Origin: an uncultured Candidatus Saccharibacteria bacterium
Lineage (GTDB): Bacteria > Patescibacteriota > Minisyncoccia > Minisyncoccales > GWA2-38-27
Assembly (NCBI GenBank): GCA_964387825.1
Contig: CAYLWZ010000002.1
Coordinates: 47,375 to 111,374, forward strand
Direction: 5' to 3'
Length of the DNA stretch: 64,000 nt
The number at the start of each line of letters is the position of its first letter. Position 1 is the stretch's first letter. The notes under the pieces are model-generated. The model saw only the letters and a list, made by a program, of their open reading frames with translations, did no database searches and was not told the origin of the DNA. Positions 4,590 through 40,959 of this stretch are shown here, piece after piece. The position numbers and the translations under genes were made by a program.

Positions 4590-4593
4590 AATT

Positions 4594-4727: not shown

Positions 4728-5282
4728 TCAAGATTTTATTGGTAGTCCTGATAATTTCAACAATTCAATCCCCTCTTGGCAGGTTTTGGCCGTAGTTACA
4801 ATCGTTATCTCAAATCCAAAAATTATTCTTGCATTTTCCGGCATAATCTCAGGGAAAGAGATGTGCTCTCTGACGGATAAAGTAAGATTTCCTTTTTTAT
4901 CAAATGATTTTGGGTCAATCCCCTGAAAATCACGAGACCTAGGAAGAGCAATATTAACCACCCTGTCTAAAAAATCATACATCTTCATTCCCCGTAAAGT
5001 AACAACCGCGCCAACAGGCATCCCTTTTCTTAATTTGAAAGATGATATTGACTTTTTTGCTTTAGTTAAAATCGGTTTCTGTCCGCAGATTAAAGCTAAA
5101 TCGTTTAGGATAGCGCTGGTTATCTTTTTTTGCTCATCAGAGGTCTTACCAGAAATTATTCTACCAAAACCAGTATTTATTACAACCTTCTCAAACTTAG
5201 GAACGGTCATAATGTTTTTATAACCGAATTTTTCTATCATTGCCGGCACAATCTTTTTTATATATTTTTCTTTTAGACGCAT
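4728..5282 (-). CDS. rplE: 50S ribosomal protein L5
   Basis: MRLKEKYIKKIVPAMIEKFGYKNIM…PKFEKVVINTG… uL5 signature. Confidence 0.85.
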   Translation of the reverse strand: MRLKEKYIKKIVPAMIEKFGYKNIMTVPKFEKVVINTGFGRIISGKTSDEQKKITSAILNDLALICGQKPILTKAKKSISSFKLRKGMPVGAVVTLRGMKMYDFLDRVVNIALPRSRDFQGIDPKSFDKKGNLTLSVREHISFPEIMPENARIIFGFEITIVTTAKTCQEGIELLKLSGLPIKS

Positions 5283-5359
5283 ACTTCAGATTTAAGATTA
5301 AAGAATTAAGATTAAAGAAAATTCACTTAAATCTGAAATCTTACAACTTAAATCTTATT

Positions 5360-5665
5360 TTATATCTCTTGTCCGCATTTTTTGCAAATACGATATTTTT
5401 TCTTTCCTTCCTTTTTATAACCTATGCGGGTTGGCTTCTCGCACTTCGGACAAATAAGTTTCACGTCAGAAACATCAAAAGACCCGGGTACTTCTACAAT
5501 CTGACCCTTTTCGCCAGATTTCTTCGGTTTAACATGTTTCTTCCTCAAATTAATTCCTTCAACCATAATCCTGTTTCTCTTAGGAAAAACTGTTATAACT
5601 TTGGCTTTTCTGCCTTTGTCTTTCCCGGAAATCACAAGAACCTGGTCGTCTTTTCTAATTTTCAT
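5360..5665 (-). CDS. rplX: 50S ribosomal protein L24 with C-terminal zinc-ribbon extension
   Basis: MKIRKDDQVLVISGKDKGRKAKVI KOW motif of uL24 plus C-terminal CPKC…CKKC. Confidence 0.8.
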   Translation of the reverse strand: MKIRKDDQVLVISGKDKGRKAKVITVFPKRNRIMVEGINLRKKHVKPKKSGEKGQIVEVPGSFDVSDVKLICPKCEKPTRIGYKKEGKKKYRICKKCGQEI

Positions 5666-5747
5666 TATATCGATGCTAATATACGAATTATACCAATAAA
5701 ACTAATAAATTATTCGTAAATTCGTAATGAATTCGCATATTAGTTGA

Positions 5748-6116
5748 TTACACTATGTCTTTGGCCAAATTAATTATTTTACTAAACCCTTTTTCCCTCA
5801 ACTCTCGCGCTATTGGTCCGAAAATTCTTCCCCCCTTCGGGTTTTTTCCTGACTCTAAAATTACTACCGCATTTTCGTCAAAACGAATATATGAACCGTC
5901 TTTCCTCCTGAAGGCCTTTTTTTGCCTAACTATCACTGCTTTAACCACATCATGTTTTTTTACCGGCCTCCGGGGTTCAGCAATTTTAACCGCTCCCACA
6001 ATAATATCGCCTAGAGCGGCGTATCTCCGGCGAGTGCCGCCTAAAACCCGGATACACTTGACTGTCCTTGCTCCGCTATTATCAGCGACTTTTAATAATG
6101 TTTCTGTTTGAATCAT
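5748..6116 (-). CDS. rplN: 50S ribosomal protein L14
   Basis: [17 protein letters not shown]…GDIIVGAVK… uL14 signature. Confidence 0.9.
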
Positions 6117-6121
6117 ATTAA

Positions 6122-6210
6122 AATAGAATTAAGAATTACGAATCAAGAATTAAGAATAAAATAAAAACTCAAAACTCATAATTCTTAATTCTTAATTCTT
6201 AATTCTTAAT
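6122..6210. repeat. rplN-rpsQ spacer: (gaattaa)n versus (ttaattc)n inverted arms
   Basis: read directly from the sequence. Confidence 0.7.
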
Positions 6211-6465
6211 TCAAAGTTTCTTTATCACTTTCCACTTCTTATCTTTACTCATCGGCCGGCTTTCTTCAATAACAACCCTGTCCCCAATTTTATACTCTCC
6301 TTCCTCGTCGTGGGCCTTATATTTCTTATGAACCTGATATCTTTTTTTATATTTAGGGTCTTCTTTTATTCGTTCCACCTCAACCACTACTGTTTTTTCC
6401 ATTTTATTAGATACTACAGTTCCTTTTAATTTTTTCTTTGGCATATGCCGCACAACATAGAACAT
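6211..6465 (-). CDS. rpsQ: 30S ribosomal protein S17
   Basis: [24 protein letters not shown]…[24 protein letters not shown] uS17 pattern. Confidence 0.85.
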
Positions 6466-6499
6466 AGAACATAGAAGATATTGTTCGATGTTTTATGTT

Positions 6500-6691
6500 T
6501 TATGTTTTATGATTTATGATTGTTAGTATTCTTGCTATATCTTTTTTAACCATACGAATCTCACGCACATTTTTTATTTTGCCCGAAGCTAAGTCAAAAC
6601 GAAACCGCCTCAACTTTTCTCTATTTCTCTCCAAGGTTTCTTTTAATTCTGTTCTCGGTTTTTGTCTTAATTCTGACGCTTTCATAGACAC
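6500..6691 (-). CDS. rpmC: 50S ribosomal protein L29
   Basis: 63 aa, MKASELRQK…EL…LERNREKLRRFRFD uL29 pattern; between S17 and L16. Confidence 0.8.
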   Translation of the reverse strand: MSMKASELRQKPRTELKETLERNREKLRRFRFDLASGKIKNVREIRMVKKDIARILTIINHKT

Positions 6692-6760
6692 AGATTAATA
6701 CGGATTTCAGCGGATTAATACTGATAAATTATCTGCATAAATCGGTTAAATCCGTATAAA

Positions 6761-7171
6761 TCAACGTTTTATAAATTTTGTTTTTATTGGTAATTTATCT
6801 GTCGCCATCTTAAATGCCTCTTTAGCTTTCTTTTCCGATATCCCTTCCAGCTCAAAAATAATTCGGCCCGGAGTAATTGGAAAAACATAATGGTCCACCG
6901 CCCCTTTTCCACCGCCCATTGGAACTTCCGTTCCTTTTTTAGTTACCGGTTTGTCTGGAAAAATTCTAATCCAAAGCTTACCTCCTTTTCTCAAATATCT
7001 AATTATAGTCCGCCTAGACGCCTCAATTTGACGCGATGTTATCCATTTTGTTCCAAAGGACTTAAGACCATAACTTCCAAAACAAAGTTCGCTTCCTCGA
7101 ACTCCAATGGTCTTTGAAGCTCTTTTTCTCCATTTCCGATGTTTAACTTTCTTTGGTATTAACATTGCCAT
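6761..7171 (-). CDS. rplP: 50S ribosomal protein L16
   Basis: MLIPKKVKHRKWRKR…GTKWITSRQIEA…RRT uL16 signature. Confidence 0.9.
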   Translation of the reverse strand: MAMLIPKKVKHRKWRKRASKTIGVRGSELCFGSYGLKSFGTKWITSRQIEASRRTIIRYLRKGGKLWIRIFPDKPVTKKGTEVPMGGGKGAVDHYVFPITPGRIIFELEGISEKKAKEAFKMATDKLPIKTKFIKR

Positions 7172-7310
7172 TTTTAAAAATTCCTAAATCCTAATTTCTA
7201 ATGTCAAACAAAATGTCAAATTATTAAATGTCCAATATCAAATTTTTCTTTTTTAGTCATTTGGCATTTAGCATTTAAATTTTTGTTAGAAATTAGACAT
7301 TAGGAATTAG

Positions 7311-8039
7311 TCATTCAAACTTCTCTCCCTTGTACATCCAAACTTTTATTCCAATTACTCCGTAACTGCAATGGGCTTCAGCTTTGGCATAATCTATATC
7401 AGCCCTGATAGTTTGAAGAGGAAGCCGGCCTTTCCTAAGCCATTCTCTTCTGGCGATTTCAACACCATTTAGCCGTCCGGCTACTTCTATTTTTACCCCT
7501 TTAATCTCTTTATTTGCCAAAACCTTGCTCATCGCTTGTTTTAACACTCTTCGGTGGTTAACTCTCTTCTCTATTTGTTGAGCAACCCACTGAGCGCAAA
7601 GACTAGCAGAAATCCAGGGCTTTCTAACTTCTCTTATTTCAATTTTTATTCCTTTCTTCTCAGAAATCATCTGGGCCAAAGACTGTTCTTTCTCTTTTTT
7701 ATTAGTTAAATCATTAGCGACAACAAGTTTTTCCTTTCCTCCCGTTATTTTAAATTTAAAAACTTTTTTTAACAATTCTCTCCTTAACTGTTCAACTCCT
7801 TCTCCTCCCCTCCCGATAATAATGCCTGGCCGATTGCTAAAAACAATAATATTTAACTTATTGGGAAATCTCTCAATTTCAACTTTTTCCACCCCGCTTT
7901 TTTTAAGCTTTCTATTTAAAAATTCTCTAATTCTAAAATCTTCCTCTAATTTTTCAGCAGCTTTTTTATAAAATCCTCTCGAACTCCAATCAGATATTTC
8001 TCTTGTCCTATATATTTTTGGATGAACTTTGTGAGACAT
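7311..8039 (-). CDS. rpsC: 30S ribosomal protein S3
   Basis: MSHKVHPKIYR…KH domain-like region…IGIKVW uS3 pattern. Confidence 0.85.
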   Translation of the reverse strand: MSHKVHPKIYRTREISDWSSRGFYKKAAEKLEEDFRIREFLNRKLKKSGVEKVEIERFPNKLNIIVFSNRPGIIIGRGGEGVEQLRRELLKKVFKFKITGGKEKLVVANDLTNKKEKEQSLAQMISEKKGIKIEIREVRKPWISASLCAQWVAQQIEKRVNHRRVLKQAMSKVLANKEIKGVKIEVAGRLNGVEIARREWLRKGRLPLQTIRADIDYAKAEAHCSYGVIGIKVWMYKGEKFE

Positions 8040-8155
8040 AACTTCTTGAAACTTGAAACTTGAAACTTGAAACTTGAGTTATAAGTTGTAAGTTATAAGT
8101 TTCTTTAATCTTTCAACTTTAATCTCTCAACTTTAATCTCTCAACTTTAATCTTT

Positions 8156-8755
8156 CTAGAACGCTTTTCGTCTAAATATCCTTTTTAATCCTCCTATATT
8201 TTTCGGTTTTGGTCCTTTTGGTTCTATCTCAGGGCGCGATTTCGGCTGTCTAATTTTTGTCCCGCCTTCAGCAAGGCCTTCTACAAGAAATTCCTTATTG
8301 CTTTTAATAACTTTTTTCTCTTTCTTGTCTTTTAATTTCTTGACAGGAGAAATTTCTTTTCTTGCCTTTTTTATGCGGGATACCCTCTCTTTTCCTCCAA
8401 TTGCCTTAGCTTCTTTTCCCGGTTTAGTTTCTTCCAAAACCAAAGTTATATGAGAAGTTCTCTTTTTAATTTGATTAACCATCCCTCTTGACCTAGGTCT
8501 CCATCTTTTATATTTCGGACCTTCATCTACGGTAATTCTGGAGATATATAAGTTGTCTGGATTAAGGTGAAAATTATTACGAGCATCGGCAACAGCTGTT
8601 TTTAAAAGTTTGGCTATTGGTCCAGCTGCTTTTTTAACAGTGAAATTCAAAATCCGTTCGGCATGCTCAACTTTATTCTTACGGATAAGGTCAGCCACAA
8701 GCCGGACTTTTCGAGGGGATATCCGTAAATATCTTAACTTAGAAACTACCGCCAT
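8156..8755 (-). CDS. rplV: 50S ribosomal protein L22 with ~90-aa Lys/Glu-rich C-terminal extension
   Basis: N-terminal 110 aa match uL22 (LRYLRISPRKVRLVADLIRKNKVEHAE…); remainder low-complexity basic tail. Confidence 0.8.
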   Translation of the reverse strand: MAVVSKLRYLRISPRKVRLVADLIRKNKVEHAERILNFTVKKAAGPIAKLLKTAVADARNNFHLNPDNLYISRITVDEGPKYKRWRPRSRGMVNQIKKRTSHITLVLEETKPGKEAKAIGGKERVSRIKKARKEISPVKKLKDKKEKKVIKSNKEFLVEGLAEGGTKIRQPKSRPEIEPKGPKPKNIGGLKRIFRRKAF

Positions 8756-8796
8756 GTTTTTGAGAATTGAAAATTAAGAATAAAAATTCGTAATTC

Positions 8797-9099
8797 TTAA
8801 TCCTGTTTTATTTCTTTTGATTTTACTTCTTGCTCCCGCTGCATTTTTCCCCCGTGTTTTCCAAATTTTGTAGTAGGGGCAAACTCTCCTAATTTATGGC
8901 CAACCATATCCTCTTTTATATTTACGGAAATATGTTCTTTACCATTATGGACGTTAAAGATAAAACCAACCATTTCCGGAACAATAGTGCAGGCGCGAGA
9001 CCAGGTCTTAATTATTTTTCTATCCTCCGGTTTCAAATCCCTGATCTTTTTTAATAATTTTTCATCTATATATGGACCTTTTTTGATGCTTCTAGACAT
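8797..9099 (-). CDS. rpsS: 30S ribosomal protein S19
   Basis: [19 protein letters not shown]…[14 protein letters not shown]…HNGK uS19 signature. Confidence 0.9.
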
Positions 9100-9299
9100 A
9101 AATTAAATTAATTTTGAATTTCTAATTTTTAATTTTGATTGAATTTTTAATTATTTAATGACTTAATTTTGAAGTAAGATTCTTTTTTTTTGTTTTTTTG
9201 TTTGTTTGTTTATTATTCAAAATTCTATTATTCATAATTGATTCAAAATTCAAAATAGAACAAGTTCCTCGCAAGCGAGAGCAAAATTCAAAATTTTTA

Positions 9300-10106
9300 T
9301 TATTTCTTTTTCTTAGATTTCCTCCTCTTGATAATATATTTATCGCTTCTCTTTTTTCTCCTTGTTTTCACTCCTAACGCAGGTTTCCCCCAGGGAGTTT
9401 TCGGATATTTTAAGCCAATTGACGACCTTCCTTCTCCTCCTCCATGAGGATGGTCAACAGGATTCATAGCCACGCCTCTAACGGACGGCCTGTGTCCCAT
9501 TAAACGATTCCTACCCGCTTTTCCAATAATTCTGTAACGCCATTCAGAATGTGAAACAGCCCCGACGGTCGCATAACAATCCCCAAAAACCATTCTTATT
9601 TCGCTGGACGGCATTTCTAAATTAACATATTTTCCTTCCTGTGCCAAAATTTTGGCGCTACTTCCCGCAGACCTGACTATTATCCCTCCTTCCCCTGATA
9701 TAAGCTCAATATTATAAACCATAGTTCCTACCGGAATATTTTTAATTTTCATTCTGTTTCCGGTTTTAATCTCAGCTTTCTCTGCCGAAATTATCTCGTC
9801 TCCTATTTTTAAGTCCTGACCGGCTAATCTATAACGTCTATCTCCGTCGCTATATTCTAAAAGAGCGATAAAGGCGGTGCGATAAGGATCGTATTCCAGA
9901 GCAATAACTTTAGCCGGGATGTCAATTTTTTTCTGATCAAAATCAACAATCCTGTATAATTTCTTACTCCCTCCTCCCCGATGACGGACAGTTATCCGGC
10001 CAGAATTATTCCTTCCCGCCCTTCTTTTAAAAGACAAAAGCAATCGTTTCTCGGGTTTTTTCTTAGTCAATATTTTTGTCGCTGATATTTTTTTTTTCTT
10101 CTTCAT
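9300..10106 (-). CDS. rplB: 50S ribosomal protein L2
   Basis: uL2 signature (…[16 protein letters not shown]…[29 protein letters not shown]); the track ORF extends to 10247, but the conserved protein starts at [11 protein letters not shown] (ATG at 10106). Confidence 0.85.
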
Positions 10107-10224
10107 AAAAACAATGATTTTTCCGCATCTATTTAGAACCGTACGGGCGGGCGACCCACGGGTCTCCCCTACGATTTTTTCAAATAAATATTGCCTATTT
10201 TCAGCGCGATTCGTATTTTGAAAA

Positions 10225-10275
10225 TTGGCTATATCAATCCCGCACATAAATTATGGGCGGGATTGATATAGCCAA
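10225..10275. promoter_or_regulatory. perfect 19-bp inverted repeat (ttggctatatcaatcccgc / gcgggattgatatagccaa) with 13-nt loop, between rplW and rplB
   Basis: read directly from the sequence; loop contains ccgcacataaattatg, which recurs at 58926-58941. Confidence 0.6.
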
Positions 10276-10283
10276 AATTGTTA

Positions 10284-10844
10284 TCATCTCGACAATAACT
10301 CTATCTTCTGCCCCTTTTTTACTTTTACTATCGCTTTTTTATACCCTTTCCTCCAGCCGATTTGCTTCCCTAATCTTCTTTTCTTTCTATGGACATTAAT
10401 AATTTTAACATCAACCGCATCAACTTCGTATATGTCTTTAATTGCTTTCTTAACTTCAATTTTATTGGCTCCGGGCCTGATTTTGAATACATACTTGTTT
10501 TTCTCGTTCAGGTCGGTTGCTTTTTCGCTAATATGAGGAGAACCTAAAACTCGGTAAGCCCTGTCAGAGATTTGTCTTTTTTGCGCTTTTCTTTTGCCTT
10601 CAGAATCTCTAACGGGGTAAACTATTTTTGAAACCTCTTTCTTCTTTTTGGTTCCCGCAACCCCGGTCTTTTTAATCTTCTCTGTCTCTTTTTCTATCTT
10701 TGGTTTAATTCCTTCAATCGGAGCAAAATATGGCTCTTTCGCAACTTCTCTTTCCTTTTTTTTCTCTATTATTTTCTTTCCCGGTTTTTTCTCTACTTTC
10801 TTTTCAACTTGTTTCCTTTTTTTAAAAATATTTAATAGACCCAT
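10284..10844 (-). CDS. rplW: 50S ribosomal protein L23 with ~90-aa Lys-rich N-terminal extension
   Basis: C-terminal ~95 aa match uL23 (…AYRVLGSPHISEKAT…IRPGANKIEVKKAI…); no internal Met, so the extension appears to be translated. Confidence 0.75.
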   Translation of the reverse strand: MGLLNIFKKRKQVEKKVEKKPGKKIIEKKKEREVAKEPYFAPIEGIKPKIEKETEKIKKTGVAGTKKKKEVSKIVYPVRDSEGKRKAQKRQISDRAYRVLGSPHISEKATDLNEKNKYVFKIRPGANKIEVKKAIKDIYEVDAVDVKIINVHRKKRRLGKQIGWRKGYKKAIVKVKKGQKIELLSR

Positions 10845-10849
10845 ATTCC

Positions 10850-10939
10850 TATAACCTGTAACTTGTAACTTGTAACTTGTAACTTGTAACTTGAGATTTA
10901 AGTTTTGAGTTTTGAGTTATGAGTTCTAAGTTGTAAGTT
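10850..10939. repeat. rplW-rplD spacer: (acttgta)4 versus (aagtt…)n inverted arms
   Basis: read directly from the sequence. Confidence 0.65.
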
Positions 10940-11569
10940 CTAAGATTTAAATGTTTCTTTAATCACCCCTATCGCCTCTTTCGGTATGATTAAATATTTA
11001 TAAGAAAGCGCGTCTAAAACGTTTAGGTCTTTCGCCTGGATTGTGGCAATTCTCGGAATGTTTCTAAGGGCTAAAATTGCATTTTTGTCTATTTCCGGCA
11101 AAGCAATTAACCCAGAACCTTTTTCTAAAAACAATTTATTCAATATTTTTTTTGCTAATTTCGTCTTTGCCTTTTCAAAACTCAAACTATCTATGACCAA
11201 AAGCAGATTATCTTTTGCCTTGGCTGATAAAACCATAAACAAGGCCTTTCTTTTCATTTTCTTGGCAATCTTTTTTTTAAAAACTCTTTCTGCTGTCGGA
11301 CCAAAAGTTACTCCCCCTCCTCTCCAAATAGGAGAACGGTTTGAACCTACCCTCGCTCTTCCGGTGCCTTTTTGCCTCCAGGGCTTTCTTCCTCCTCCTC
11401 TAACTTCGCTTCTGTCTTTCGTTTTAGCGATATTTCTCCTCTGATTCGCCCTTTGCGCCAAAACTACCTGATGAACTAAATCAAGATTCATTTTCACTTC
11501 AAATATCTCTTTCGGCAAATCTATCTTTCCGACCTCTTCTCTATTTTGATTATAAAGTATTGTTTTCAT
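10940..11569 (-). CDS. rplD: 50S ribosomal protein L4
   Basis: uL4 pattern (…VHQVVLAQRANQRRNIAKTKDRSEVRGGGRKPWRQKGTGRAR…); likely start is MKTILYNQ (11569); upstream codons come from a catgaaa tandem repeat. Confidence 0.8.
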   Translation of the reverse strand: MKTILYNQNREEVGKIDLPKEIFEVKMNLDLVHQVVLAQRANQRRNIAKTKDRSEVRGGGRKPWRQKGTGRARVGSNRSPIWRGGGVTFGPTAERVFKKKIAKKMKRKALFMVLSAKAKDNLLLVIDSLSFEKAKTKLAKKILNKLFLEKGSGLIALPEIDKNAILALRNIPRIATIQAKDLNVLDALSYKYLIIPKEAIGVIKETFKS

Positions 11570-11640
11570 GAAACATGAAACATGAAACATGAAACATTTT
11601 TTTAATTTAGGTTTCAAGTTTTACGTTCCAAGTTTTAAAA

Positions 11641-12255
11641 TCATCCTCTAATCTCTAATAGCGTTCCCCTTCTTCCGGGAATAGCCCCTTTTACTGCTAA
11701 TAAATTATTTTCCAGGTCAATTTTTACTATTTTTAAATTTTTCACCGTTACTCTTTCCGTTCCCATTCTGCCGGGCATCCTTCTGCCCTTAATCACTTTC
11801 TGGGGAAACATTGAGCCGATTGAGCCGATTGTTCTTTCCGTATGTTTCGTTCCATGGGTGGCTGTCTGGCCGTGAAATCCCCATCTTTTTACTCCTCCGG
11901 CAAATCCTTTTCCCTTAGAAATACCAGAAATTTTTACTTTCTCCCCTTTATCAAAAATTGAAACATCAATTTTATCTCCCATCTTCATTTTTTGTTCGCT
12001 GTTCGCTGTTCGCTGTTCGTTGACTCTAAACTCTCTTAAATGTTTGTAGGGCTTGTCCCTAAGCGGTTTTTTAATTTTATTTTTCTTATTTATCTCTTCA
12101 AAACCAACCTGAATCGCCTTATAACCGTCTTTTTCCTTCGTCTTAATTTGAACAACATAACAAGGGCCGGCTTCAACCAAAGTCACTGGAATAACATTCC
12201 CTTCTCCGTCAAATATCTGGCTCATTTCTATTTTTTTTCCAAGAATGAATTTCAC
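11641..12255 (-). CDS. rplC: 50S ribosomal protein L3
   Basis: MKFILGKKIEMSQIFDGEGNVIPVTLVEAGPC…GKGFAGGVKRWGFHGQ…THG uL3 signature. Confidence 0.9.
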   Translation of the reverse strand: MKFILGKKIEMSQIFDGEGNVIPVTLVEAGPCYVVQIKTKEKDGYKAIQVGFEEINKKNKIKKPLRDKPYKHLREFRVNEQRTANSEQKMKMGDKIDVSIFDKGEKVKISGISKGKGFAGGVKRWGFHGQTATHGTKHTERTIGSIGSMFPQKVIKGRRMPGRMGTERVTVKNLKIVKIDLENNLLAVKGAIPGRRGTLLEIRG

Positions 12256-12440
12256 CCCATTAGAAGTCTGTCCTTATATAGTCAGTAACTAATTTCAAAC
12301 AGACTTTTATTTTCCAACTATACTCCGTTATTGCTGAGCAGAAAAAATTTTAAAAATTTTTTTCTGCCAAAGACTTCTAACGGGGTTCATACAATACAAT
12401 CCGAATATTCCAAATTCTTATCTGAATACTCCAAACAATG

Positions 12441-12465
12441 AAAAACTGGGCATTGCCCAGTTTTT
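12441..12465. terminator. terminator/attenuator-like hairpin (aaaaactgggc att gcccagttttt) inside the rpsJ-rplC spacer
   Basis: perfect GC-containing stem flanked by A5/T5 on both sides; symmetric, so reads as a U-tailed hairpin on either strand. Confidence 0.5.
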
Positions 12466-12600
12466 CGAGGCAATTTAAATTATTGTATAATTTTTTAAAT
12501 TTTAATAAAATACATAGTTGATCTTATTCGTAGATCCGGATGTTATTCGTCCTAGACCCGTTCGTCCCGAACGGGACGGACTAGGGTTATTCGTCAATTT

Positions 12601-12942
12601 CTATATCTTTACTTCAATATCAACGCCCGCGGGCAAAGTTAAATTTATTAAGGCGTCAATTACATTCTGATTAGGATTTAAAATATCAATCAATCTTTTA
12701 TGAATTCTCATTTCAAACTGCTCCCGGCTGTCTTTATGGACAAAAGATGCTCGATTAACTGTATATTTGTGAATTTCGGTCGGTAAAGGAACTGGTCCCA
12801 CAATTTTAACGCCGTATCTTAAGGCCGTCTCAACAATCTGCCGAGCGCTATTATCAATCACTTTATTGTCATAAGCCTTCAGCTTTATCCTGAGCCTTTG
12901 CTTAAATTCAGTTTCTTCCTTAATTACTTTCTTGGTAGGCAT
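12601..12942 (-). CDS. rpsJ: 30S ribosomal protein S10
   Basis: …[25 protein letters not shown]…GPVPLPT… uS10 signature. Confidence 0.9.
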
Positions 12943-13041
12943 TATTATATTGCTAAGCTGTCCCGCTAAAAGCGGGGCTCGTTTATTATTGCATCGTTGT
13001 TTAATTCAATAATTTAACAATGCAATAATTCAGCAATTACT

Positions 13042-14232
13042 TTATATCTTGACTACTACTCCGGCGCCAACTGTTTTTCCGCCTTCCCTTATTGCAAATC
13101 TCTGTTTCTCTTCAAGAGCGACTGGAGACATTAACTTAACGTTTAAATTGACCGTATCGCCTGGCATAACCATTTCCGTCCCTTCTGGCAAAACTACATC
13201 TCCAGTTACATCAGTAGTCCTAATGTAAAATTGCGGTTTATATCCTTTAAAGAAAGGGGTATGGCGGCCGCCTTCTTCTTTGGTCAAAATATAAATCTCG
13301 CCCTCAAATTCGGTATGAGGCGTAACTGTTCCCGGTTTGGCCAAAACCTGGCCCCTTTCAACTTCTTCTTTTTTTAATCCTCTGAGAAGAATTCCAACAT
13401 TGTCTCCTGCTTTCCCTTCATCAAGTATTTTATTGAACATTTCTATACTCACTGCTACTGTTTTTTTTGTATCTTTTAAACCAATCAACTCTACCTCTTC
13501 ATTAGATTTAATTATTCCTCTTTCAATTCTTCCGGTAGCAACTGTCCCTCGTCCTTCAATAGAAAAAACATCTTCAATTGCCATTAAAAACGGCTTAGCT
13601 GTATCTCTAACAGGTTCTGGTATATACTCGTCTAACGCCTTAACCAGGTCTAAAATCGGCTTAGCTGCTTCGTCATCGCTTGATTTACATCCCAGCGCTT
13701 TTAGGGCAGAACCGCGAATTACCGGAATTTCATCCCCGGGATATTCATACTTTTTTAAAAGTTCTCGAATCTCTGATTCAACCAAATCAATAATTTCCGG
13801 GTCGTCAACCATATCGGTTTTATTAAGAAAAACAACAATTGAGGGAATACCAACCTGGCGGGCAAGCAAAACATGCTCTCTTGTCTGGGGCATAGGGCCG
13901 TCAGGAGCAGAAACCACCAAAATGGCGCCGTCCATCTGAGCGGCTCCGGTAATCATATTTTTAATATAATCGGCATGCCCGGGACAATCTATATGGGCGT
14001 AATGCTTTTTTTCCGATTCATACTCTAAATGAGAAACAGATATCGTAAGACCCCTGTCTCTTTCTTCTGGAGCAGCGTCAATCTGGTCAACGCTTTTTTC
14101 TTTACTGTTAAAACCCTTCAAACTTAAAACATGAAGGATAGCGGCTGTTAAGGTAGTTTTACCATGGTCAACATGGCCAATAGTACCAACATTTATATGA
14201 GGTTTTGTCCTTTCAAATTTTTCTTTAGCCAT
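13042..14232 (-). CDS. tuf: elongation factor Tu
   Basis: [32 protein letters not shown]…DCPGHADY… canonical EF-Tu. Confidence 0.95.
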
Positions 14233-14375
14233 AATTATTAAAAGAATTACGAATAATGAATTACGAATTAAGAATATTATATAATTCCTAATTCTTAATT
14301 CTAAATTCTAAATTCTAATTTATTTATTATTATCTTATTACTTTTTAAAAAAATGTCAATGTTTAGAGCGCGAAA

Positions 14376-16499
14376 TTATCGTCTTTTCCCTTCTATGATT
14401 TCCTGGGCTATATTACGAGGGACTTCTTCATAATAATCAAATTCCATTGTAAATGTTCCTCTTCCTTCTGTCAACGACCTTAATCCAGTGGCATAACCGA
14501 ACATTTCCGCCAAGGGAACGATAGCATTGATAATCTTTAAGTTTAATCTATCTTTCGTCTCCTCAATTCTGCCCCGTCTCGCCGATAAATCACCAATAGT
14601 ATCCCCAAAAAACTCTGAAGGCACAATAACTTCTAACTTCATAATCGGCTCCAATAAAACTGGTTTTGCTCTTTTTGCCGCCGCTTGAAAAGCGATAGAG
14701 CCGGCAATTTTAAAAGCGTTCTCGGAAGAATCAACCTCGTGAAAAGAGCCGTCATATAAAATCGCTTCTAAATCCATCATCGGGTAACCGGCTACAATTC
14801 CTTTATCTATCGCCTCTTTTATTCCTTTCCCCACTGCCGGAATAAATTCTTTGGGAATAACTCCTCCCTTAATTTTATCTATAAAATCAAATCCTTCCCC
14901 TCTGTCTTTTGGCTTAATCCTCAGCCAAACATGACCATACTGCCCGCGGCCTCCTGATTGTCTGATATACTTTCCTTCCGCTTCCGCTTCTTGTTTAATT
15001 GTTTCTTTGTAAGCGACCTGGGGTCTGCCAACCTTGGCGTTAACATTAAACTCACGCTTCATCCTATCCACAATAATCTCAAGATGCAACTCTCCCATAC
15101 CTGAAATAATCGTTTCGCTGGTTTCCAGATCTTCTTTTACTTTAAAGGTCGGGTCTTCTTCTGATAATTTCTTAAGAGCTAAACCCATTTTTTCTTGGTC
15201 GGCTTTTGACTCGGGTTCAATACGAATAGAAATAACCGGTTCTGGAAATATTATATTCTCCAAAACAATGTCCTGACCTTCTTCACAAAGGGTATCTCCG
15301 GTTTTAGTATTCTTTAAACCGACCGTGGCCGTAATATCTCCAGTAAAAACCTCTTTTACTTCTTCTCTTTCGGATGAATGCATTCTCAAAATTCGGCCGA
15401 CTCTTTCTTTTTTATTTGTTGTTGAATTCAAAACATAAGAACCTACTGCCAAAGAGCCTGAGTATACGCGGAAATAAGTTAAAGTCCCCACATATGGATC
15501 GGTCGCCACTTTGAAAGCAAGAGCGGAAAATTTCTCTGAATCGTCGGCTTTTCTTTCAATTTCCTCGCCTGTTTTAGGATACACCCCTTTTACTGGAGGC
15601 AAATCTTGAGGGCTAGGAAGATAATCACAAACGGCGTCAAGCAAAGGTTGAATTCCTTTATTTTTTAAGGCAGAACCGCAAAATACCGGAATTAATTTAT
15701 AACTCAACACAGATTTACGCAAAATACTTTTTAATTCTTCGTTGGAAATTTCCCTATTAGCCAAATATAGGCCTAAAATTTTCTCATCTTCCGCAACAAT
15801 TTTCTCAATCATTTTCTCCCGCCATTCTTTGGCTTCGGCTAATAAATTTTCAGGAATTTCCTCCTCTTTTACTACTTGGCCAAAATCGCCTTCAAATTTC
15901 AGCGCCTTCATCGTAAAAAGGTCAATTACTCCCTGATGGTTATCTTCTTCTCCTATCGGTATTTGAAGAGCAACGGCATTAGGAGAAAGTTTTTCTAAGA
16001 TAGAATCAAAACTCTTTTTAAAAGAAGCGCCTGTTCTGTCCAGTTTGTTTATAAAACAAATTCTGGGCACCTGATATTTGTCCGCCTGACGCCAGACGGT
16101 CTCTGATTGCGGCTCCACTCCGGCTACTCCGTCAAAAATAACCACTGCTCCGTCTAAAACCCTCAGAGACCTTTGAACTTCTGCAGTGAAATCAATATGT
16201 CCCGGGGTGTCAATAATATTTATTCTGTACTCGTTTTCTTTTCCCTGTTTTTCCGCGCCGCTATCTGCGTTTTTCCGCGTCTTCCAAAAACAGGTAGTAG
16301 CGGCTGAAGTAATAGTAATCCCTCTTTCCCTTTCCTGCTCCATCCAATCCATAATTGCCTGGCCATTATGGACTTCACCGATTTTATGGGAAATTCCGGT
16401 GTAAAACAAAACTCGCTCGGTTACAGTTGTTTTACCGGCGTCAATATGGGCAATAATTCCGATATCGCGAATTTTCTCAATTGGATAAATACGAGGCAT
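14376..16499 (-). CDS. fusA: elongation factor G
   Basis: [35 protein letters not shown]…DTPGHIDF… canonical EF-G, 707 aa. Confidence 0.95.
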
Positions 16500-16722
16500 A
16501 AATTTTCAATTAAAAATCCTAAGCGAGGCAATAATTCTTGAAAGTAAACCCAGTTAGAGATTCCGAGGACAAAGAAAAAATAAAGAAACAAGATATCTCT
16601 AACCGGGTAAACTTCGGAGGCAGTTTAGCATGGTTCCCGCTTTTAGCGGGATAAACTGCCGAGAAATTAGGCCCCAAAATCTCGCTGGGATCTTGAGGAT
16701 CGGTAATCCCTAACCGAGCGGC

Positions 16723-17193
16723 TCACCAGGCGAAATGGGCAAAAGCGCGATTTGCTTCGGCCATTCGGTGGGTATCGCTTTTCTTTTTAATCGCCCAACC
16801 TGTATTATTAACGGCGTTCATCAATTCTTCCGCTAATTTTTCTTTCATCGGTTTTCCTTTTTTTTGTTTGGCTCCTTGAATTATCCAGCGCATAGCTAAA
16901 GTTAATTTCCTGCTTCCTTTTACTTCTACCGGAACCTGATAAGTCGCTCCGCCGATTCTTTTTGATTTTACTTCAAGCAAAGGTGAAGTGTTTCTTAAAG
17001 CCGTTTCAAAAACCTCTAACGGCTCTTTCTTCGTCTTTTCTTTAATAATATCAAAAGCGCCATAAACAATCTTTCTGGCTATTGTTTTCTTGCCCCGTCT
17101 CATAATTTGGTTAATAAATTTAGCGACAGTAATGTCGTTATAGACAGAATCGGGGTTAACGGGATATTTTTTTATTTTTTTTCTCCGAGCCAT
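16723..17193 (-). CDS. rpsG: 30S ribosomal protein S7
   Basis: [20 protein letters not shown]…KRAFAHFAW uS7 signature. Confidence 0.9.
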
Positions 17194-17255
17194 TTTTTCT
17201 TGAAACTTAAAACTTGGAACTTAAAACATAATCATTTAAAAAGTTTCAGGTTTTA

Positions 17256-17669
17256 TTACTTCTTTTCTTTCTTTGTTCCGTATTTGCTTCTTCCCTGTTT
17301 TCTATTCTCTACTCCCCCGGCGTCCAAAACGCCTCTTACCACATGGTACCTCACTCCAGGTAAATCTTTAACTCTTCCTCCGCGAATAATCACAACCGAA
17401 TGCTCCTGCAAATTATGCCCTTCTCCGGGAATATAAGCGGTAACCTCCATCCCGTTAGTTAAACGAACCCGAGCCACTTTTCGAAGAGCAGAGTTTGGTT
17501 TCTTGGGAGTAGCGGTAAAAACTTTAAGGCAAACGCCTTTCTTAAAAGACGAAGGATACTTTCTCGGCCTGTTTTTAAGCGAGTTAAAGCCAAAACTTAA
17601 AGCAGGCATATTAGAACGCTTCTTTTTTTTCTTTCTATTCTTTTTTACAAGTTGATGAATTGTAGGCAT
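17256..17669 (-). CDS. rpsL: 30S ribosomal protein S12
   Basis: [10 protein letters not shown]…[59 protein letters not shown] uS12 signature. Confidence 0.9.
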
Positions 17670-17776
17670 AACAAAAGATTTAGGATTTAAGATTTAAGTT
17701 AAAAATTAAAAATAATAATAAAAAGATAGCGATAACCGCTATTTCATAATTTAGCAAAAAGTTTTCAAATTGTCAA

Positions 17777-18406
17777 TTAAACAGGTAAAGAAAAACCGGT
17801 GATTAATGAAAAAATCACATTAATAATAAATATTATCCAAGGAAACAAGAAAAAAATAATAAAAAGTAAAATAATAAAACCAAATTGCTGTAAAAATATT
17901 TTTGTCTTGAGCATAGAAGGAGGCAAAAAAGTAAAAAGAATATGAGAACCGTCTAAAGGAGGGATGGGAAGCAAATTGAAGATTGCTAAAAGAAGATTGA
18001 TATAAACAATATAAGAGAACATCAAAACAAGACCGGAAAAAGAGAACGATAAAGGAAGAAATCTCAGTAACAAACCAAAAAAGACCGCTATGGTTAAATT
18101 CGCCCCGGGACCGGCTAAAGATACTTTTAATTCTCCGTATTTCTGATCTCGGAAATTATAAGGATTAATAGGCACTGGTTTGGCCCAGCCGAAAATAATT
18201 CCTCCACCGGTTAATCTCGCCATAGCAATTAAAAAAATCGGGAGAATAACCGAGCCGACAGGGTCTAAATGTTTAAGGGGGTTCAAAGTAAGACGGCCGG
18301 CGTATTTAGCTGTCGGGTCCCCCAAATAATACGCCATCGCTCCATGAGAAACTTCATGAATAACAACAGAAAAAATCAAAATAATAATCAAAAAAATATA
18401 TTCCAT
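17777..18406 (-). CDS. M50 family (site-2 protease-like) membrane metallopeptidase
   Basis: HEVSHG (HExxH) and NLLPIPPLDG motifs in a multi-TM protein; likely start is MEYIFLII (18406), not the track start 18475. Confidence 0.7.
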   Translation of the reverse strand: MEYIFLIIILIFSVVIHEVSHGAMAYYLGDPTAKYAGRLTLNPLKHLDPVGSVILPIFLIAMARLTGGGIIFGWAKPVPINPYNFRDQKYGELKVSLAGPGANLTIAVFFGLLLRFLPLSFSFSGLVLMFSYIVYINLLLAIFNLLPIPPLDGSHILFTFLPPSMLKTKIFLQQFGFIILLFIIFFLFPWIIFIINVIFSLITGFSLPV

Positions 18407-18617
18407 ATTATTAGTGTAACAAAAAATTTTACAAAAGTAAAAATTTCTGATAAGATAACTTAAACGAATTTTCAATTATCAATTTTCAAATTTTCAATCA
18501 AATCCCAATTTTCAAATTTTCAAACTTTTTAAAAATCGTACTTTTCTATTGTTATTTAATAATTGAATCATTGAAAATTTATTGAAAATTGGTTATTGAA
18601 AATTGAAAATTAATTTT

Positions 18618-18842
18618 ATGTCTAAACAATGCGCGATCTGCGGAAAAGGGTCAATAATGGTCCAACATCTAAAAAAACTTCGGGGAAAATATAATCCAAC
18701 AGGGAAAAAAAGAAAATACCCTAATCTACAATGGGTAGTTATCCCAAAAAATGTAAGACATCCAAAAAAAGCAATCCCCTTGCGGGGAAAGCGAGTTTTG
18801 GCTTGCACCAAGTGCATCAAGGCATTCGGAAAAAGTAAATAA
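18618..18842 (+). CDS. rpmB: 50S ribosomal protein L28
   Basis: MSKQCAICGKG…NVRHPKK…RVLACTKCIK bL28 pattern with Cys ribbon; start could instead be 18603. Confidence 0.8.
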   Translation: MSKQCAICGKGSIMVQHLKKLRGKYNPTGKKRKYPNLQWVVIPKNVRHPKKAIPLRGKRVLACTKCIKAFGKSK

Positions 18843-18957: not shown

Positions 18958-19223
18958 TGGTAAATTAAAGCCCTGCAATTTTTAGAAAGAATTCTTGGAT
19001 AATCATTCAAGTCGGTATCCGCACATATTCGCCAAAGCGAATATAAATAATAGGATTCCTTAAAAAATAATTATAGTCCAGAATCTAGCTAAAAATTAAC
19101 AGGGCTATCTTTAATATAGCGTTGACTGACGCTAATGTCAATAAGCAAAATATCGAAATTGTCCAATTTATCTTTTCGCCCCATTTTTAGTAAAAATTGT
19201 GGGATTCGCTAATTTATCAGACC

Positions 19224-21209: not shown

Positions 21210-21257
21210 TTTCTATTTTTCATACAAGCATTATGATAAAAATATTGCTATCCAAAA

Positions 21258-21361
21258 ATGAACTACCTCGCCCCAAAAGGGCGAGGTGTCCCTCCGGGCG
21301 AGTTCTTTCGGTAGATGTATCCTCGCCGCGGAGCGGCGAGGTATTTATGTTCCGAAATAAA
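21258..21361. repeat. 104-bp double-hairpin 'CCTCGCC' repeat element, copy 1 (intergenic)
   Basis: ~90% identical to 63210-63314; hairpins cctcgcccc-aaaa-gggcgagg and cctcgccgc-gga-gcggcgagg. Confidence 0.8.
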
Positions 21362-21667: not shown

Positions 21668-21875
21668 AGAGCGCGGGATTCAAACCAGAATCAATTTAGC
21701 TCCGTCCGTAGGGAAACGAAATAATGGGTCAATTTCTTCGTCACTCCTCCTCAAGGTATTAATTCTTAATACCTCTTCGTCGTTCTATACCCGTCCGGGA
21801 CGGACTAGGATCGTTCCTCGAACTTAACCCATTCTTTCGTTTCTAAACTTGGTTCTGGTTTGAATCCCACGCTCT
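21668..21875. mobile_element. MITE-like element copy 1 (208 bp) with terminal inverted repeats agagcgcgggattcaaaccagaa … ttctggtttgaatcccacgctct
   Basis: terminal inverted repeats plus internal nested inverted repeats; internal 100 bp is the exact reverse complement of part of 27983-28283. Confidence 0.8.
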
Positions 21876-27658: not shown

Positions 27659-27982
27659 ACATGTTTCAATTTTGCTTTTTTATAAACATTAGAAAAAAAT
27701 TAAAATAAAAAACCGATTATTTAACCGGTTTTAGTATATCATGGAACAAAACGGCTTGTCAATGTATTACTTATTTAAAGCACAACAGCAAAAACAACAA
27801 GATAAAAAAAGCGAGACCCATCCTCGTTGCGAGGCTAGGTCTCGCAGAAACCTCCTTACCACCATCTACTATTTCTTTATACTGCAAGCTTCGTTTAAAT
27901 CTTTAAGAATATTTGCAATATCGATGCCGTAGAGTTTGCAAATATCTCCGATTTTTAAGCTCTCCATTTCCATTTTGGCTAA

Positions 27983-28283
27983 AGAGCGTGGGATTCGAAC
28001 CAGAACCAAATTTAGAAACGAAAGAATGGGTTAAGTTCGAGGAACGACCCTAGTCCGTCCCGGACGGGTATAGGACGACGAAGAGGTATTAAGAATTAAT
28101 ACCTTGAGGAGGAGTGACGAAGAAATTAGCCCATTCTTTCGCTTCCCTTTAGGCGGGTGAATTTTATCCACCTTCTTCGTTGCTCGTCGCTAATGTATCC
28201 TGCGGATACATTACGCTCCTCGCGCCTTGAATCTGAATAAAATTCGCTCCGCTAAATTGATTCTGGTTCGAATCCCACGCTCT
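27983..28283. mobile_element. MITE-like element copy 2 (301 bp), inverted relative to copy 1, with extra 115-bp internal segment
   Basis: terminal inverted repeats agagcgtgggattcgaaccagaa … ttctggttcgaatcccacgctct; internal gtattaagaattaatacc and cctagtccgtcccggacggg hairpins shared with copy 1. Confidence 0.85.
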
Positions 28284-28387
28284 AAAGGGCAACCAAGACA
28301 AGGCAATTTATATTTTTCCAATATTTTGTCTGCCCTGGGATATTCCAAAATTTTAGCCAAAGTTGTGTTTTTTGTAATCTGAACCAT
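28211..28387 (-). pseudogene. DUF1858-like small redox protein (CxGCP motif) truncated by MITE insertion
   Basis: first 35 codons MVQITKNTTLAKILEYPRADKILEKYKLPCLGCPL match the DUF1858 N-terminus; codon 36 onward is encoded by the MITE terminal repeat. Confidence 0.55.
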
Positions 28388-28388
28388 A

Positions 28389-29147
28389 TTAGGAAGCCAG
28401 CCAGCCGCCGTCAACAACCATTGTGTGCCCGGTAATATATTCGCTTTCGTCTGAAGCCAAAAAAGCGGCCGCATTGGCGATATCCTCGGGTTTGCCTATT
28501 CTTCCATAGGGCACCTTTGCCAAAAGACCTGCTTTTACGTTCTCATCTGCCAGTAATGGCTCTGTCATCGCTGTTTTTATCACGCCGGGAGCAATGGCAT
28601 TAACATTAATTCTGTGCTTCCCGAGGTCTAAAGCAAGCTCTTTGGTTAAGTTAATAATCCCTCCTTTGGTCGCGCAATAAACACTGGACATATCAAAGCC
28701 GACGAATCCGGCAATGCTTGCGATACTAATAATCTTTCCGTATTTCTGGGATTTCATCTCCGGTATGACATACTTTGAACAAAGAATAACGCCTTTTAAG
28801 TTCACATTGAGTATCTTCTCTATTTCTGAGGTCTCCATCTGGTCTAATTCTTTTTGAATAAAAATCCCGGCGTTGTTCACCAAAATATCTATCCTGCCGA
28901 ATTTATCTTTTGTTGTCTTCACCATTCCTTTGATATCTTCTTCATTAGTCACGTCTAATTTTAAAGCTAATCCTTCACTTCCTTTTTCTTCAACCTTTTC
29001 TACCACCGCCTCGCAATCTTCTTTGTTAATGTCGGTAACAACAACTTTGGCGCCGCTTTCGGCTAACTTTAAAGCAATCGCTTCTCCAATTCCCCCCCCT
29101 GCTCCGGTTACTACGGCAATTTTACCAGTTAAATCGTATTTATTCAT
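28389..29147 (-). CDS. SDR-family oxidoreductase (FabG-like)
   Basis: TGAGGGIGEAIA Rossmann motif, NNAG, S…YxxxK catalytic pattern (YCATKGG). Confidence 0.8.
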   Translation of the reverse strand: MNKYDLTGKIAVVTGAGGGIGEAIALKLAESGAKVVVTDINKEDCEAVVEKVEEKGSEGLALKLDVTNEEDIKGMVKTTKDKFGRIDILVNNAGIFIQKELDQMETSEIEKILNVNLKGVILCSKYVIPEMKSQKYGKIISIASIAGFVGFDMSSVYCATKGGIINLTKELALDLGKHRINVNAIAPGVIKTAMTEPLLADENVKAGLLAKVPYGRIGKPEDIANAAAFLASDESEYITGHTMVVDGGWLAS

Positions 29148-29214: not shown

Positions 29215-29350
29215 TTCATATCTCAAAGCATCAACCGGATTCATCTTAGCGGCGCCTCTGGCAGGCAGACCCGCCTGTATCGTTATGCGAAGCATTGCGG
29301 GCAGGTATCCGGAAATACAGCCTATCAAGAACGAGAAAACCAGACCAAAT
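29215..29350 (-). pseudogene. degenerate duplicate of the 3' end of the MacB-type permease gene (cf. 30406-30470), interrupted by one GC-rich 36-bp element
   Basis: translation …CISGYLPA[MLRITIQAGLPA]RGAAKMNPVDALRYE* versus permease C-terminus …VGCVSGYLPARSAAKFNPAEALRYE*. Confidence 0.75.
29271..29305. repeat. GC-rich 36-bp 'PARNA' element, single copy
   Basis: ccgcctgtatcgttatgcgaagcattgcgggcagg; same family as 36187-36258, 36517-36588 and 47586-47624. Confidence 0.8.
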
Positions 29351-35592: not shown

Positions 35593-36147
35593 TTATAATC
35601 CTAATCCATCAGAAATTTTTTGCATCGCACTTAAAGTAATCTCAATAAATTTTTCTAAAGACAGACCTAATAAATTTTCAGATTTTTTTATTATTTCCCT
35701 ATTAGCCCCTCTGGCAAACGCTTTTTCCTTAAAACGCCTTAAAACATTTTCCGTTTTTAAATCGTTTATTTTTTTAGAAGGCAGAACAAGAGTAGCGGCT
35801 ACTATTAAACCGGTTAAAGGGTCAACGCAATATAGCGCCTTTGCCATTTTTGTTTCCGGTTCAATGTTATGAATTTCATTATGAGACAAAACCGCATTAC
35901 ATATCTCTTCGTCAAATCCTAATTTTTTCAACATTTCGGCCCCTACCCTAGAATGCAGTTTGGGATCGCCTTCTACTTTTTCATAATCAATATCGTGCAA
36001 TAAACCGGCAATCCCCCATTTATTTTTGTCTTCATCAAAATATTCGGCAAAATCCCTCATTGCTGCTTCTACGGCTAAACAATGTTTAATGAGATTTTTA
36101 TTTTTAATATTTTCTTTTAATAAATTTAATGCTTCTTCTCTTTTCAT
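35593..36147 (-). CDS. HD-domain phosphohydrolase
   Basis: HCLAVEAAMRDFA … LLHDIDY HD motif. Confidence 0.65.
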   Translation of the reverse strand: MKREEALNLLKENIKNKNLIKHCLAVEAAMRDFAEYFDEDKNKWGIAGLLHDIDYEKVEGDPKLHSRVGAEMLKKLGFDEEICNAVLSHNEIHNIEPETKMAKALYCVDPLTGLIVAATLVLPSKKINDLKTENVLRRFKEKAFARGANREIIKKSENLLGLSLEKFIEITLSAMQKISDGLGL

Positions 36148-36737
36148 TTTATTTTAAATAAAAGCCATTGTTTTCCCCGGCCTTTCCCGCCTGCAACGCT
36201 TTGCGTAGCATTGCGGGCAGGCCCGCCTGCAACGCTTTGCGTAGCATTGCGGGCAGGCATTTTAACTAAGCAATAATTTCCTTTTAATTTTTTACCTTTT
36301 AATCCAAAAATAATCTTATCCTTTGTTTTCTCAACTAATTCGTATTTTCCTTTGTCATAAATCTTGACAATGCCTGCTCCATAATTTCCTTTGGGTATTT
36401 TTCCTTCAAAATTAATATAGCCGATTGGGTGGTCTTCAGTTTGAATCGCCAGATGTTTCACTCCCTTCTTTCCCGGCACTCCTTTCGGCACCGCCCAAGA
36501 TTTTAAAACTCCATCCCCGCCTGCATCGCTATGCGAAGCATTGCGGGCAGGCCCGCCTGCATCGCTATGCGAAGCATTGCGGGCAGGCATTTCTAACCTG
36601 AAATCAAAATGATGCCCCGCTTTCTCAGCAAAATGTTCTTGAACCACAAACCTATTTTCTGAAGTTCTCAAAACCTTACCTTTTGGCTCGGGAGTTTTAT
36701 CAAACTTTCTTTTCTCCCAATATTTTTTTAAGCTCAT
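36144..36737 (-). CDS. LigD-type 3'-phosphoesterase (PE) domain protein carrying two in-frame 2x12-aa repeat insertions
   Basis: KRKFDKTPEP…FVVQEHFAEKAGHHFDFRLE…DGVLKSWAVPKGVP…EDHP…FEG…G matches the LigD PE domain; inserts PARNASHSDAGG x2 and PARNATQSVAGG x2. Confidence 0.65.
   Translation of the reverse strand: MSLKKYWEKRKFDKTPEPKGKVLRTSENRFVVQEHFAEKAGHHFDFRLEMPARNASHSDAGGPARNASHSDAGGDGVLKSWAVPKGVPGKKGVKHLAIQTEDHPIGYINFEGKIPKGNYGAGIVKIYDKGKYELVEKTKDKIIFGLKGKKLKGNYCLVKMPARNATQSVAGGPARNATQSVAGGKGRGKQWLLFKIK
36187..36258. repeat. 2x tandem GC-rich 36-bp element (ccgcctgcaacgctttgcgtagcattgcgggcaggc), in-frame in LigD-PE gene
   Basis: perfect tandem; ~60% GC in a ~33% GC genome; encodes PARNATQSVAGG x2. 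Confidence 0.9.
36517..36588. repeat. 2x tandem GC-rich 36-bp element variant (ccgcctgcatcgctatgcgaagcattgcgggcaggc), in-frame in LigD-PE gene
   Basis: perfect tandem; encodes PARNASHSDAGG x2. Confidence 0.9.
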
Positions 36738-40706: not shown

Positions 40707-40959
40707 GATAATTTGTTTATTAATTATTACTTTATTAATTTTAACATTAAATCGACCTTTAGAATAGCTTTAGAGCACAGGATTCGAATCCCGCAGTCTT
40801 TAACCTTGATTGCAAACACTAACTGTTATGAGTATATACCCATAACCATCGCTTGTCAACTCTCGTTTTCAATAAGGGAAGGGGCGGGAATTATAATCAA
40901 AAAAACCGAGGAATAAATCCCAGCTTTAATTTTTTTTAATCAATTGTTTTAGTTTTCGC

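Follow-up and report, generated by a model that had tools for sequence, protein, structure and literature searches.

Bacterial MITEs include the Correia elements of Neisseria, RUP of Streptococcus pneumoniae, Nezha of cyanobacteria and ERIC/IRU of enterobacteria. A cognate autonomous element is not strictly defining for a MITE, and many MITE families have no known partner. Among other small repeats, the Rickettsia palindromic elements (RPE) can insert in protein-coding genes, where they are in frame and translated, while the REP/BIME-RAYT and IS200/IS605-derived elements are hairpin-forming repeats between genes that have neither long terminal inverted repeats nor a target duplication. The genomes of Patescibacteria-like lineages are generally portrayed as small and as containing little mobile DNA.

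The 64-kb stretch of DNA analyzed here (the window) contains two copies of an element that resembles the bacterial MITEs in falling within 100–400 bp, in being non-coding, and in having terminal inverted repeats, a short target duplication and many copies. It also shares with them a mostly intergenic location near gene ends, folding into a long hairpin, and size variants produced by internal insertions or deletions. Unlike Correia or IS630-type elements, which duplicate TA, the family duplicates AA in a TAA context; and unlike known bacterial MITEs, it shows no similarity to entries of Rfam or, by BLAST, of plasmid and phage collections, and has a Patescibacteria-like host. By the traits generally ascribed to the IS5 superfamily and to its eukaryotic relatives, PIF/Harbinger with Tourist-type MITEs, the family is like these in its 2–3 bp A/T-only duplication, its TAA/TTA context and its (A)GAG termini, and differs in that its duplication is best read as 2 bp (AA) rather than as TAA. 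Like RPE, it is a palindromic repeat of a small genome that can land inside a protein-coding gene; unlike the translated RPE, it adds 303 nt to that gene, a multiple of three but with three in-frame stops, and thus breaks it. Like the REP/BIME-RAYT and IS200/IS605-derived elements, it forms hairpins between genes, but it has both the long terminal inverted repeats and the target duplication. The category (MITE) is already known and the element is of an ordinary kind; the family itself is apparently new.

Two inverted copies in the window

Two copies in opposite orientation, 208 and 301 bp long, had been noted in the preliminary description, and their sequence is as described there (Table 1). 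The 23-nt terminal repeat AGAGCGYGGGATTCRAACCAGAA has exactly four exact matches in the window, at 21668, 21875(-), 27983 and 28283(-), whereas none is expected in shuffled sequence. The four matches form two inward-facing pairs, 21668/21875 and 27983/28283. Over 169 nt, copies 1 and 2 have 95% identity; they face in opposite directions, and their homology is confined to the element, with unrelated flanks on either side. The nested internal inverted repeats proposed together with the terminal ones were likewise found: the arms pair over ~33 nt, and within them lie a second inverted repeat of ~24 nt and a central hairpin, GGTATTAAGAATTAATACC. Compared with shuffles, the two copies fold with z-scores of -9 and -11.

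Copy 2 is the full-length form and lies in a DUF1858 gene, with its family orientation on the minus strand. Copy 1 is intergenic, between the start of a 61-aa ORF (21636) and the stop of a 332-aa gene (21995), and is regarded as the short form because most family members carry the 93-nt module that it lacks. ORFs wholly inside the element reach at most 46 aa, and none is conserved. A six-frame pseudo-protein of the element gave no match among 5.8 billion proteins, including spurious ORF calls on other copies.

Table 1. Coordinates of the MITE copies, their internal modules, remnants and the interrupted gene in the window
Feature	Position	Strand	Remarks
Solo small hairpin	12551..12585		flanked by 10-bp direct repeat GTTATTCGTC (12542-12551 and 12586-12595)
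MITE copy 1, short form, 208 bp	21668..21875	+	without the 93-nt first hairpin domain; intergenic
DUF1858 3' fragment, AKMEMESLKIGDICKLYGIDIANILKDLNEACSIKK plus original stop	27869..27982	-	intact, in phase; second duplication copy at 27981-27982
MITE copy 2, full-length form, 301 bp	27983..28283	-	27-33-bp terminal inverted repeats, two internal hairpin domains, no usable ORF, nhmmer E=7e-87
Nested small GC-rich hairpin CCTAGTCCGTCCCGGACGGGTATAGG in copy 2	28049..28074		same module in copy 1 at 21784-21809
First hairpin domain, 93 nt	28149..28241	-	in copy 2 and most family members; missing from copy 1 and L142
DUF1858 5' fragment, codons 1-35 (MVQIT...CLGCPL)	28284..28387	-	includes AA/TT duplication at 28284-28285
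Collapsed 28-bp remnant	40772..40799		AGAGCACAGGA-TTCGAA-TCCCGCAGTCT; outer 11 nt of each terminus joined at palindromic TTCGAA

Interruption of a DUF1858 gene

Copy 2 had been proposed to truncate the DUF1858 gene after codon 35 and to replace its C-terminus. The insertion, which interrupts codon 35 of what was a 71-aa gene, was confirmed; the replacement was not, as the 3' half is intact downstream. From its start at 28387 on the minus strand, the gene reads MVQIT...CLGCPL and then 23 element-encoded codons to the first of three in-frame stops inside the element. The same frame resumes 303 nt downstream, beyond the element, with the codons of the 3' fragment. Excision of 303 nt, namely the 301-bp element plus 2 nt, yields a 71-aa protein that matches PF08984 over profile positions 1–58 of 59. 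In an orthologue alignment, this reconstructed protein was found to run without a gap across the junction with 11 orthologues of 66–77 aa, being 49–73% identical to them. The proposed truncation is thus only partly correct, the gene being split. When the reconstructed protein and the element ORFs were looked up by exact sequence, the 34-aa C-terminal fragment was the sole recorded match. The domain is split and stop codons are introduced, and the gene should be inactivated. The preservation of its 3' half argues for a fairly recent insertion.

An empty orthologous site, CCTTTCGCC, is present in a syntenic relative where the window has CCTTTAG[element]CC; with longer context, the relative reads ...TGTCCTTTCGCCAAAATGGAG... 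and the window ...TGCCCTTTAG[element]CCAAAATGGAA.... The gene order at the empty site is short-chain dehydrogenase (SDR), DUF1858, a 157-aa gene and Rrf2. This site was seen in two contigs (L153 and L154), and its carrier is a different species from the window host. The occupied allele is 100% identical in L007 and L008, which are independent assemblies from two other samples, and the insertion is thus no assembly artefact. No Rfam model matched 27900-28400 at E<=10, which lends no support to a self-splicing (group I or II) intron.

Separately, contigs from three independent assemblies (L005, L006 and L009) were observed all to terminate at window positions ~27876-27879, that is, at the DUF1858 stop codon, ~105 nt before the MITE. 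These shared contig ends may mark strain variation at the DUF1858 locus.

Flanking duplication

Target-site duplications were looked for at each copy, and identical AA/AA or TT/TT flanks were found at 10 of the 12 full copies, the flanks of the other two (L137 and L138) being imperfect. A T precedes the first AA in eight of the 10 with identical flanks, giving a TAA context. Whether the flanks read TAA...AA or TT...TTA is independent of the internal orientation of the element, which fits symmetric termini with a 2-bp duplication. AA is present on both sides even of a variant with the ends GCCCGG...CCGGGC (L131:11745-12015). The simplest reading is that of symmetric ends and a 2-bp AA duplication at a TAA-like target. 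In addition, the DUF1858 frame needs a net gain of 303 nt (301 + 2), which excludes insertion without duplication.

Two other readings of the flanks were considered. A 3-bp TAA duplication is disfavoured by the indifference of flank type to internal orientation, and also by the variant L131:11745-12015 and the L134 copy, in both of which the AA of the second side lacks the T. Derivation from IS630/Tc1-mariner elements was rejected, as the flanks are AA...AA (TT...TT) and cannot be read as TA on both sides, wherever the ends are placed.

The duplication also bears on the idea that the element is a single-stranded DNA hairpin moved by an HUH (Y1) transposase, comparable with the IS200/IS605-derived palindrome-associated elements or with REP/RAYT. 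The element is indeed a long hairpin-rich palindrome, and the genome has several other small GC-rich hairpin repeat families. However, HUH systems have no target duplication and no long terminal inverted repeats, but subterminal hairpins beside a fixed tetra- or pentanucleotide, whereas here the DUF1858 frame cannot be restored without the 2-bp duplication and the termini are inverted repeats of 27–33 bp. Mobility of the HUH type is accordingly considered very unlikely.

A dispersed family in related contigs

The host genome was covered over 64 kb, and a survey for further copies of the terminal repeat found them outside the window, at unrelated loci. With the exact pattern, one further locus was found in genome contigs (L003, from a different MAG) and none in a first metagenome scan. 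The L003 copy, 24 nt downstream of a tRNA-Leu gene, occupies a terminator hairpin loop, as AAAAAACCGCCTAA[element]AAGGCGGTTTTT. A slightly relaxed motif gave 17 metagenome loci, 14 of which bear the family and three of which are chance matches in GC-rich contigs. The 14 loci add at least nine further distinct insertions and the variant with diverged termini. After removal of same-locus duplicates, the family comprises at least 12 distinct insertions of 208–313 bp, lengths below the ~600 bp usual as an upper bound for MITEs, and an additional copy of 543 bp contains a nested element. Every full copy begins and ends with the terminal repeat of 27–33 bp, whose family consensus is AGAGYGYGGGATTCGAACCAGARTCAA. 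The contigs that carry the family have 34–40% GC (window, 35.8%), and the only DNA that they have in common with the window is the element and one other short repeat.

The earlier designation as a MITE family is strongly upheld by these copies, which occupy unrelated loci in other contigs and another MAG, by their sharp ends and by the recurrent 2-bp flanking duplication. The family very probably consists of non-autonomous DNA transposons (MITEs) with one or two hairpin domains and no conserved ORF. A local inverted duplication, or an assembly artefact of this contig, had been the alternative suggested by the only two full copies in the window, which are 6.1 kb apart and inverted. The copies at unrelated loci in many contigs and another MAG refute both, the independent assembly of the occupied site in two other samples refutes the artefact, and the copy flanks have no homology beyond the element. 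Together with the empty orthologous site, the unrelated-locus copies remove the local-duplication scenario, and either explanation is now vanishingly improbable.

The lineage in which the family occurs has low GC and is related to a MAG that bears the label 'Patescibacteria group bacterium'. The closest DUF1858 homologue with a source name has this label, and its contig and the window have gene order in common (M50 peptidase, S12, S7 and EF-G, as well as an ADK-like gene); identity between the two is 80% for S12 and 67% for the ADK-like protein. A Patescibacteria/CPR bacterium is accordingly the most likely host. A 14-nt core pattern gave only chance or tRNA-like matches in viral contigs, and re-scoring found no family members among them. 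The literature searched on MITEs in Patescibacteria/CPR mentions no MITE family for a Patescibacteria-like lineage. Having no counterpart in the collections and literature searched, the family is apparently undescribed.

The family has been active enough to knock out a conserved small redox-associated gene. The 64 kb contain, besides this MITE, at least three other small palindromic repeat families, including the in-frame insertions in a LigD phosphoesterase gene described below. Hairpin-type repeats may notably shape such reduced genomes, and may cause contig breaks and chimeras in MAGs.

In a further contig (L147:1-420; JGI 3300031351, Ga0307427_1001730), the right half of copy 1 (identical) is followed by the left half of another member (80% identical), and the flanking gene also differs. 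Its flanks are mismatched (TT...AA). Either two MITE copies have recombined here or the assembly is chimeric at the repeat.

Terminal repeats and the question of a tRNA origin

The terminal repeat embeds a string like the tRNA T loop, from which a tRNA-derived origin had been proposed. Under this proposal, the 3' part of a tRNA gene, with its T loop and acceptor strand, would have given rise to the termini, in the manner of SINEs or of tRNA-targeting integrative elements. The string GGTTCGAATCC, extended in some copies to GGTTCGAATCCCAC, is typical of a T loop plus 3' T-stem; the GGATTCGAAC box is conserved in the main family and in the variant L131:11745-12015, while the outermost bases vary; and the L003 copy sits 24 nt after a tRNA-Leu gene. 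However, the putative 5' T-stem strand (TCT) is unable to pair with CAC, and only GGTTCGAATCC(CAC) is T-arm-like. ARAGORN found no tRNA in the element, the Rfam tRNA model gave none even at E<=10, and the best local match to the real tRNAs at hand was 12 of 14 nt. The palindrome TTCGAA also makes any terminal repeat with GGATTCGAACC read GGTTCGAATCC on the other strand, and the termini of a nested relative in L137 have no T-arm motif. Beyond the 11–14-nt T-arm-like string, a tRNA-derived origin is thus unsupported, and is quite improbable. A simpler reading of the conserved GGATTCGAAC box is that of a putative recognition core of the terminal repeat.

Palindromic core

Consensus folding of 12 members gave 69 pairs, 37 of them with double compensatory changes, and hairpin tips were found to be swapped for unrelated sequences that still pair. 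The stems are more conserved than neutral decay predicts. The compensatory changes, and the same core with unrelated termini in L137, are not expected of a neutrally decaying MITE. These observations, together with the conservation of the purine-rich internal-loop strands GAGGAG and GACGAAG, would be explained if the conserved core were a functional structured RNA or single-stranded DNA structure merely carried by the inverted-repeat ends.

The evidence of strand symmetry argues against this. By per-element minimum free energy, one strand is favoured in six cases and the other in seven; consensus folding of the two strands gives -74.8 versus -73.9 kcal/mol, with 53 versus 44 G-U cells. An apparent excess of G-U pairs arose when the structure was derived from a single strand. 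The two orientations with respect to adjacent genes are about equally frequent (~5 to 5), and a structured RNA is not indicated by any Rfam match. Since both strands fold equally well, the conservation points to palindromy at the DNA level rather than to a strand-specific RNA, and the latter was rejected on the symmetry of folding energies and G-U pairs. The apparent covariation could also have arisen from co-evolution of both ends with one transposase and from hairpin-templated repair. A functional structured core is therefore unlikely, albeit somewhat less so than the tRNA origin. There is a similarly small chance that selection acts on the ~200-nt hairpin core rather than on the termini, the core being a structural module captured by different transposition systems. 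If so, the core fold (as single-stranded DNA or RNA) would be needed for mobility or would benefit the host, for instance as a site of termination or processing.

Remnants and nested hairpins

Three smaller traces had been listed beside the two full copies. The solo terminal-repeat trace at 40769-40795 is real, and is better described as a collapsed 28-bp element with the TT...TTA flanks of the family (Table 1). Comparable remnants are present at L131:7923-7952 and L134:5778-5803. Because TTCGAA is palindromic, its occurrences at the left and right ends are direct repeats, and deletion between the two palindromes would leave remnants of 28–30 bp. After insertion, elements may also decay or be remodelled through loss of the first hairpin domain (copy 1 and L142, both without the domain) and, as a third route, when other small GC-rich hairpins insert into them. 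Being laid out as 11-6-11, the 28-bp remnant was considered as a dif/Xer-like site; this candidate was rejected, the terminal repeats themselves being without that symmetry. Near one of the comparable remnants, L131:7308-9024 encodes a LAGLIDADG endonuclease and a tyrosine recombinase (Phage_integrase plus SAM-like domain) that adjoin the 30-nt remnant at 7923-7952. No functional link of these two genes to the remnant is evident.

The second trace, the fragment gtgggattcg placed at about 19168-19185, actually lies at ~19178-19187 and is a 10-nt coincidence with mismatching flanking bases; the nhmmer profile of the family did not detect it.

The third, reported as the core hairpin alone at 12546-12590 between direct repeats, does share sequence with the element and does have the direct repeats; but it is a separate small element, which is also nested in the MITE. 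The hairpin at 12551-12585 and the element share CCTAGTCCGTCCCG, with three matches in the window against 0.06 expected. Among family members, the CCTAGTCCGTCCCGGACGGG hairpin occurs only in the two copies of the window, where it is flanked by short direct repeats; it is missing from the L003 copy and all other members, indicating a secondary insertion in this lineage. Other nested GC-rich hairpins are present in the copies L134, L142 and L141. The 543-bp copy (L137:13909-14451 and L145:3865-4407) contains a nested element of 269 nt that has the same hairpin core and unrelated termini, GTCCTGGCCCTCCCCATATTATAT... (more fully, GTCCTG(G/T)CCCTCCCCATATTATAT(C/T)CATCTGA). No other copy of these nested-element termini was found in any sequence examined.

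Proposed mobility

A plausible route, pieced together from the element's ends and flanks, is that a transposase encoded elsewhere would bind the terminal repeats, with the GGGATTCGAAC box as the likely recognition core. A 2-nt staggered cut of the target, integration of the element and gap repair would then produce the AA duplication. The enzyme would be a DDE transposase acting in trans, which would fit the terminal repeats, the 2-bp duplication, the exact ends and the lack of an ORF. The autonomous partner predicted by this DDE scheme would be a DDE transposase ORF between ends AGAGYGYGGGATTCGAACC.

In the IS5 superfamily (ISL2, IS1031 and IS427 groups), duplications of 2–4 bp are made at TAA-like sites. 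The TAA context in eight of 12 copies, with 2 bp duplicated, would accord with the IS5/PIF-Harbinger kind, and we take it to point most to an IS5-superfamily (ISL2/IS1031/IS427-like) enzyme. Literature look-ups on the traits of IS5 subgroups gave nothing decisive. A search of ~250 kb of relevant loci for IS-like inverted-repeat pairs 0.6–3.5 kb apart found none with the family termini. Pfam searches of the ORFs adjacent to the copies revealed no cognate transposase, only housekeeping genes, one tyrosine recombinase and one LAGLIDADG endonuclease.

Other repeats and features of the window

A LigD_N 3'-phosphoesterase gene at 36144-36737 (minus strand) has two in-frame insertions of 72 nt, at 36186-36258 and 36516-36588. 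In both, a GC-rich palindromic unit of 36 nt occurs twice in tandem, and the translations read (PARNASHSDAGG)x2 and (PARNATQSVAGG)x2. Without both insertions, the protein matches PF13298 over its full length (positions 1–107) with 125.8 bits; with them, it matches over 17–107 with 110.6 bits. These 36-nt palindromes behave like RPE, unlike the MITE. A diverged copy of the repeat is present at 29229-29310, and a related hairpin is nested in the MITE copies L134 and L142.

A 105-nt repeat with the GC-rich hairpins CCTCGCCCCAAAAGGGCGAGG and CCTCGCCGCGGAGCGGCGAGG occurs at 21257-21361 and 63210-63314, the two copies being 92% identical. MITE copy 1 is ~300 nt away from one of them. This is probably another small mobile or structured repeat family.

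In the ribosomal-protein/EF-G cluster (window 1-18700), nearly every spacer contains arrays of 7-nt tandem repeats (CTTATAA, AATTCTT, CTTGAAA and others). Examples are found at 3789-3891, 4309-4400, 4595-4738, 6125-6212, 8045-8155, 10852-10948 and 14241-14320, and also at 62683-62715. Every array is matched by its reverse complement, so that each spacer can form a heptad-built hairpin of 30–45 bp. The related Patescibacteria contig L155 has no such arrays.

The coding-strand bias is extreme over the 64 kb: ~60 of the 69 ORFs of at least 120 aa are on the minus strand, and the few on the plus strand overlap longer minus-strand ORFs.
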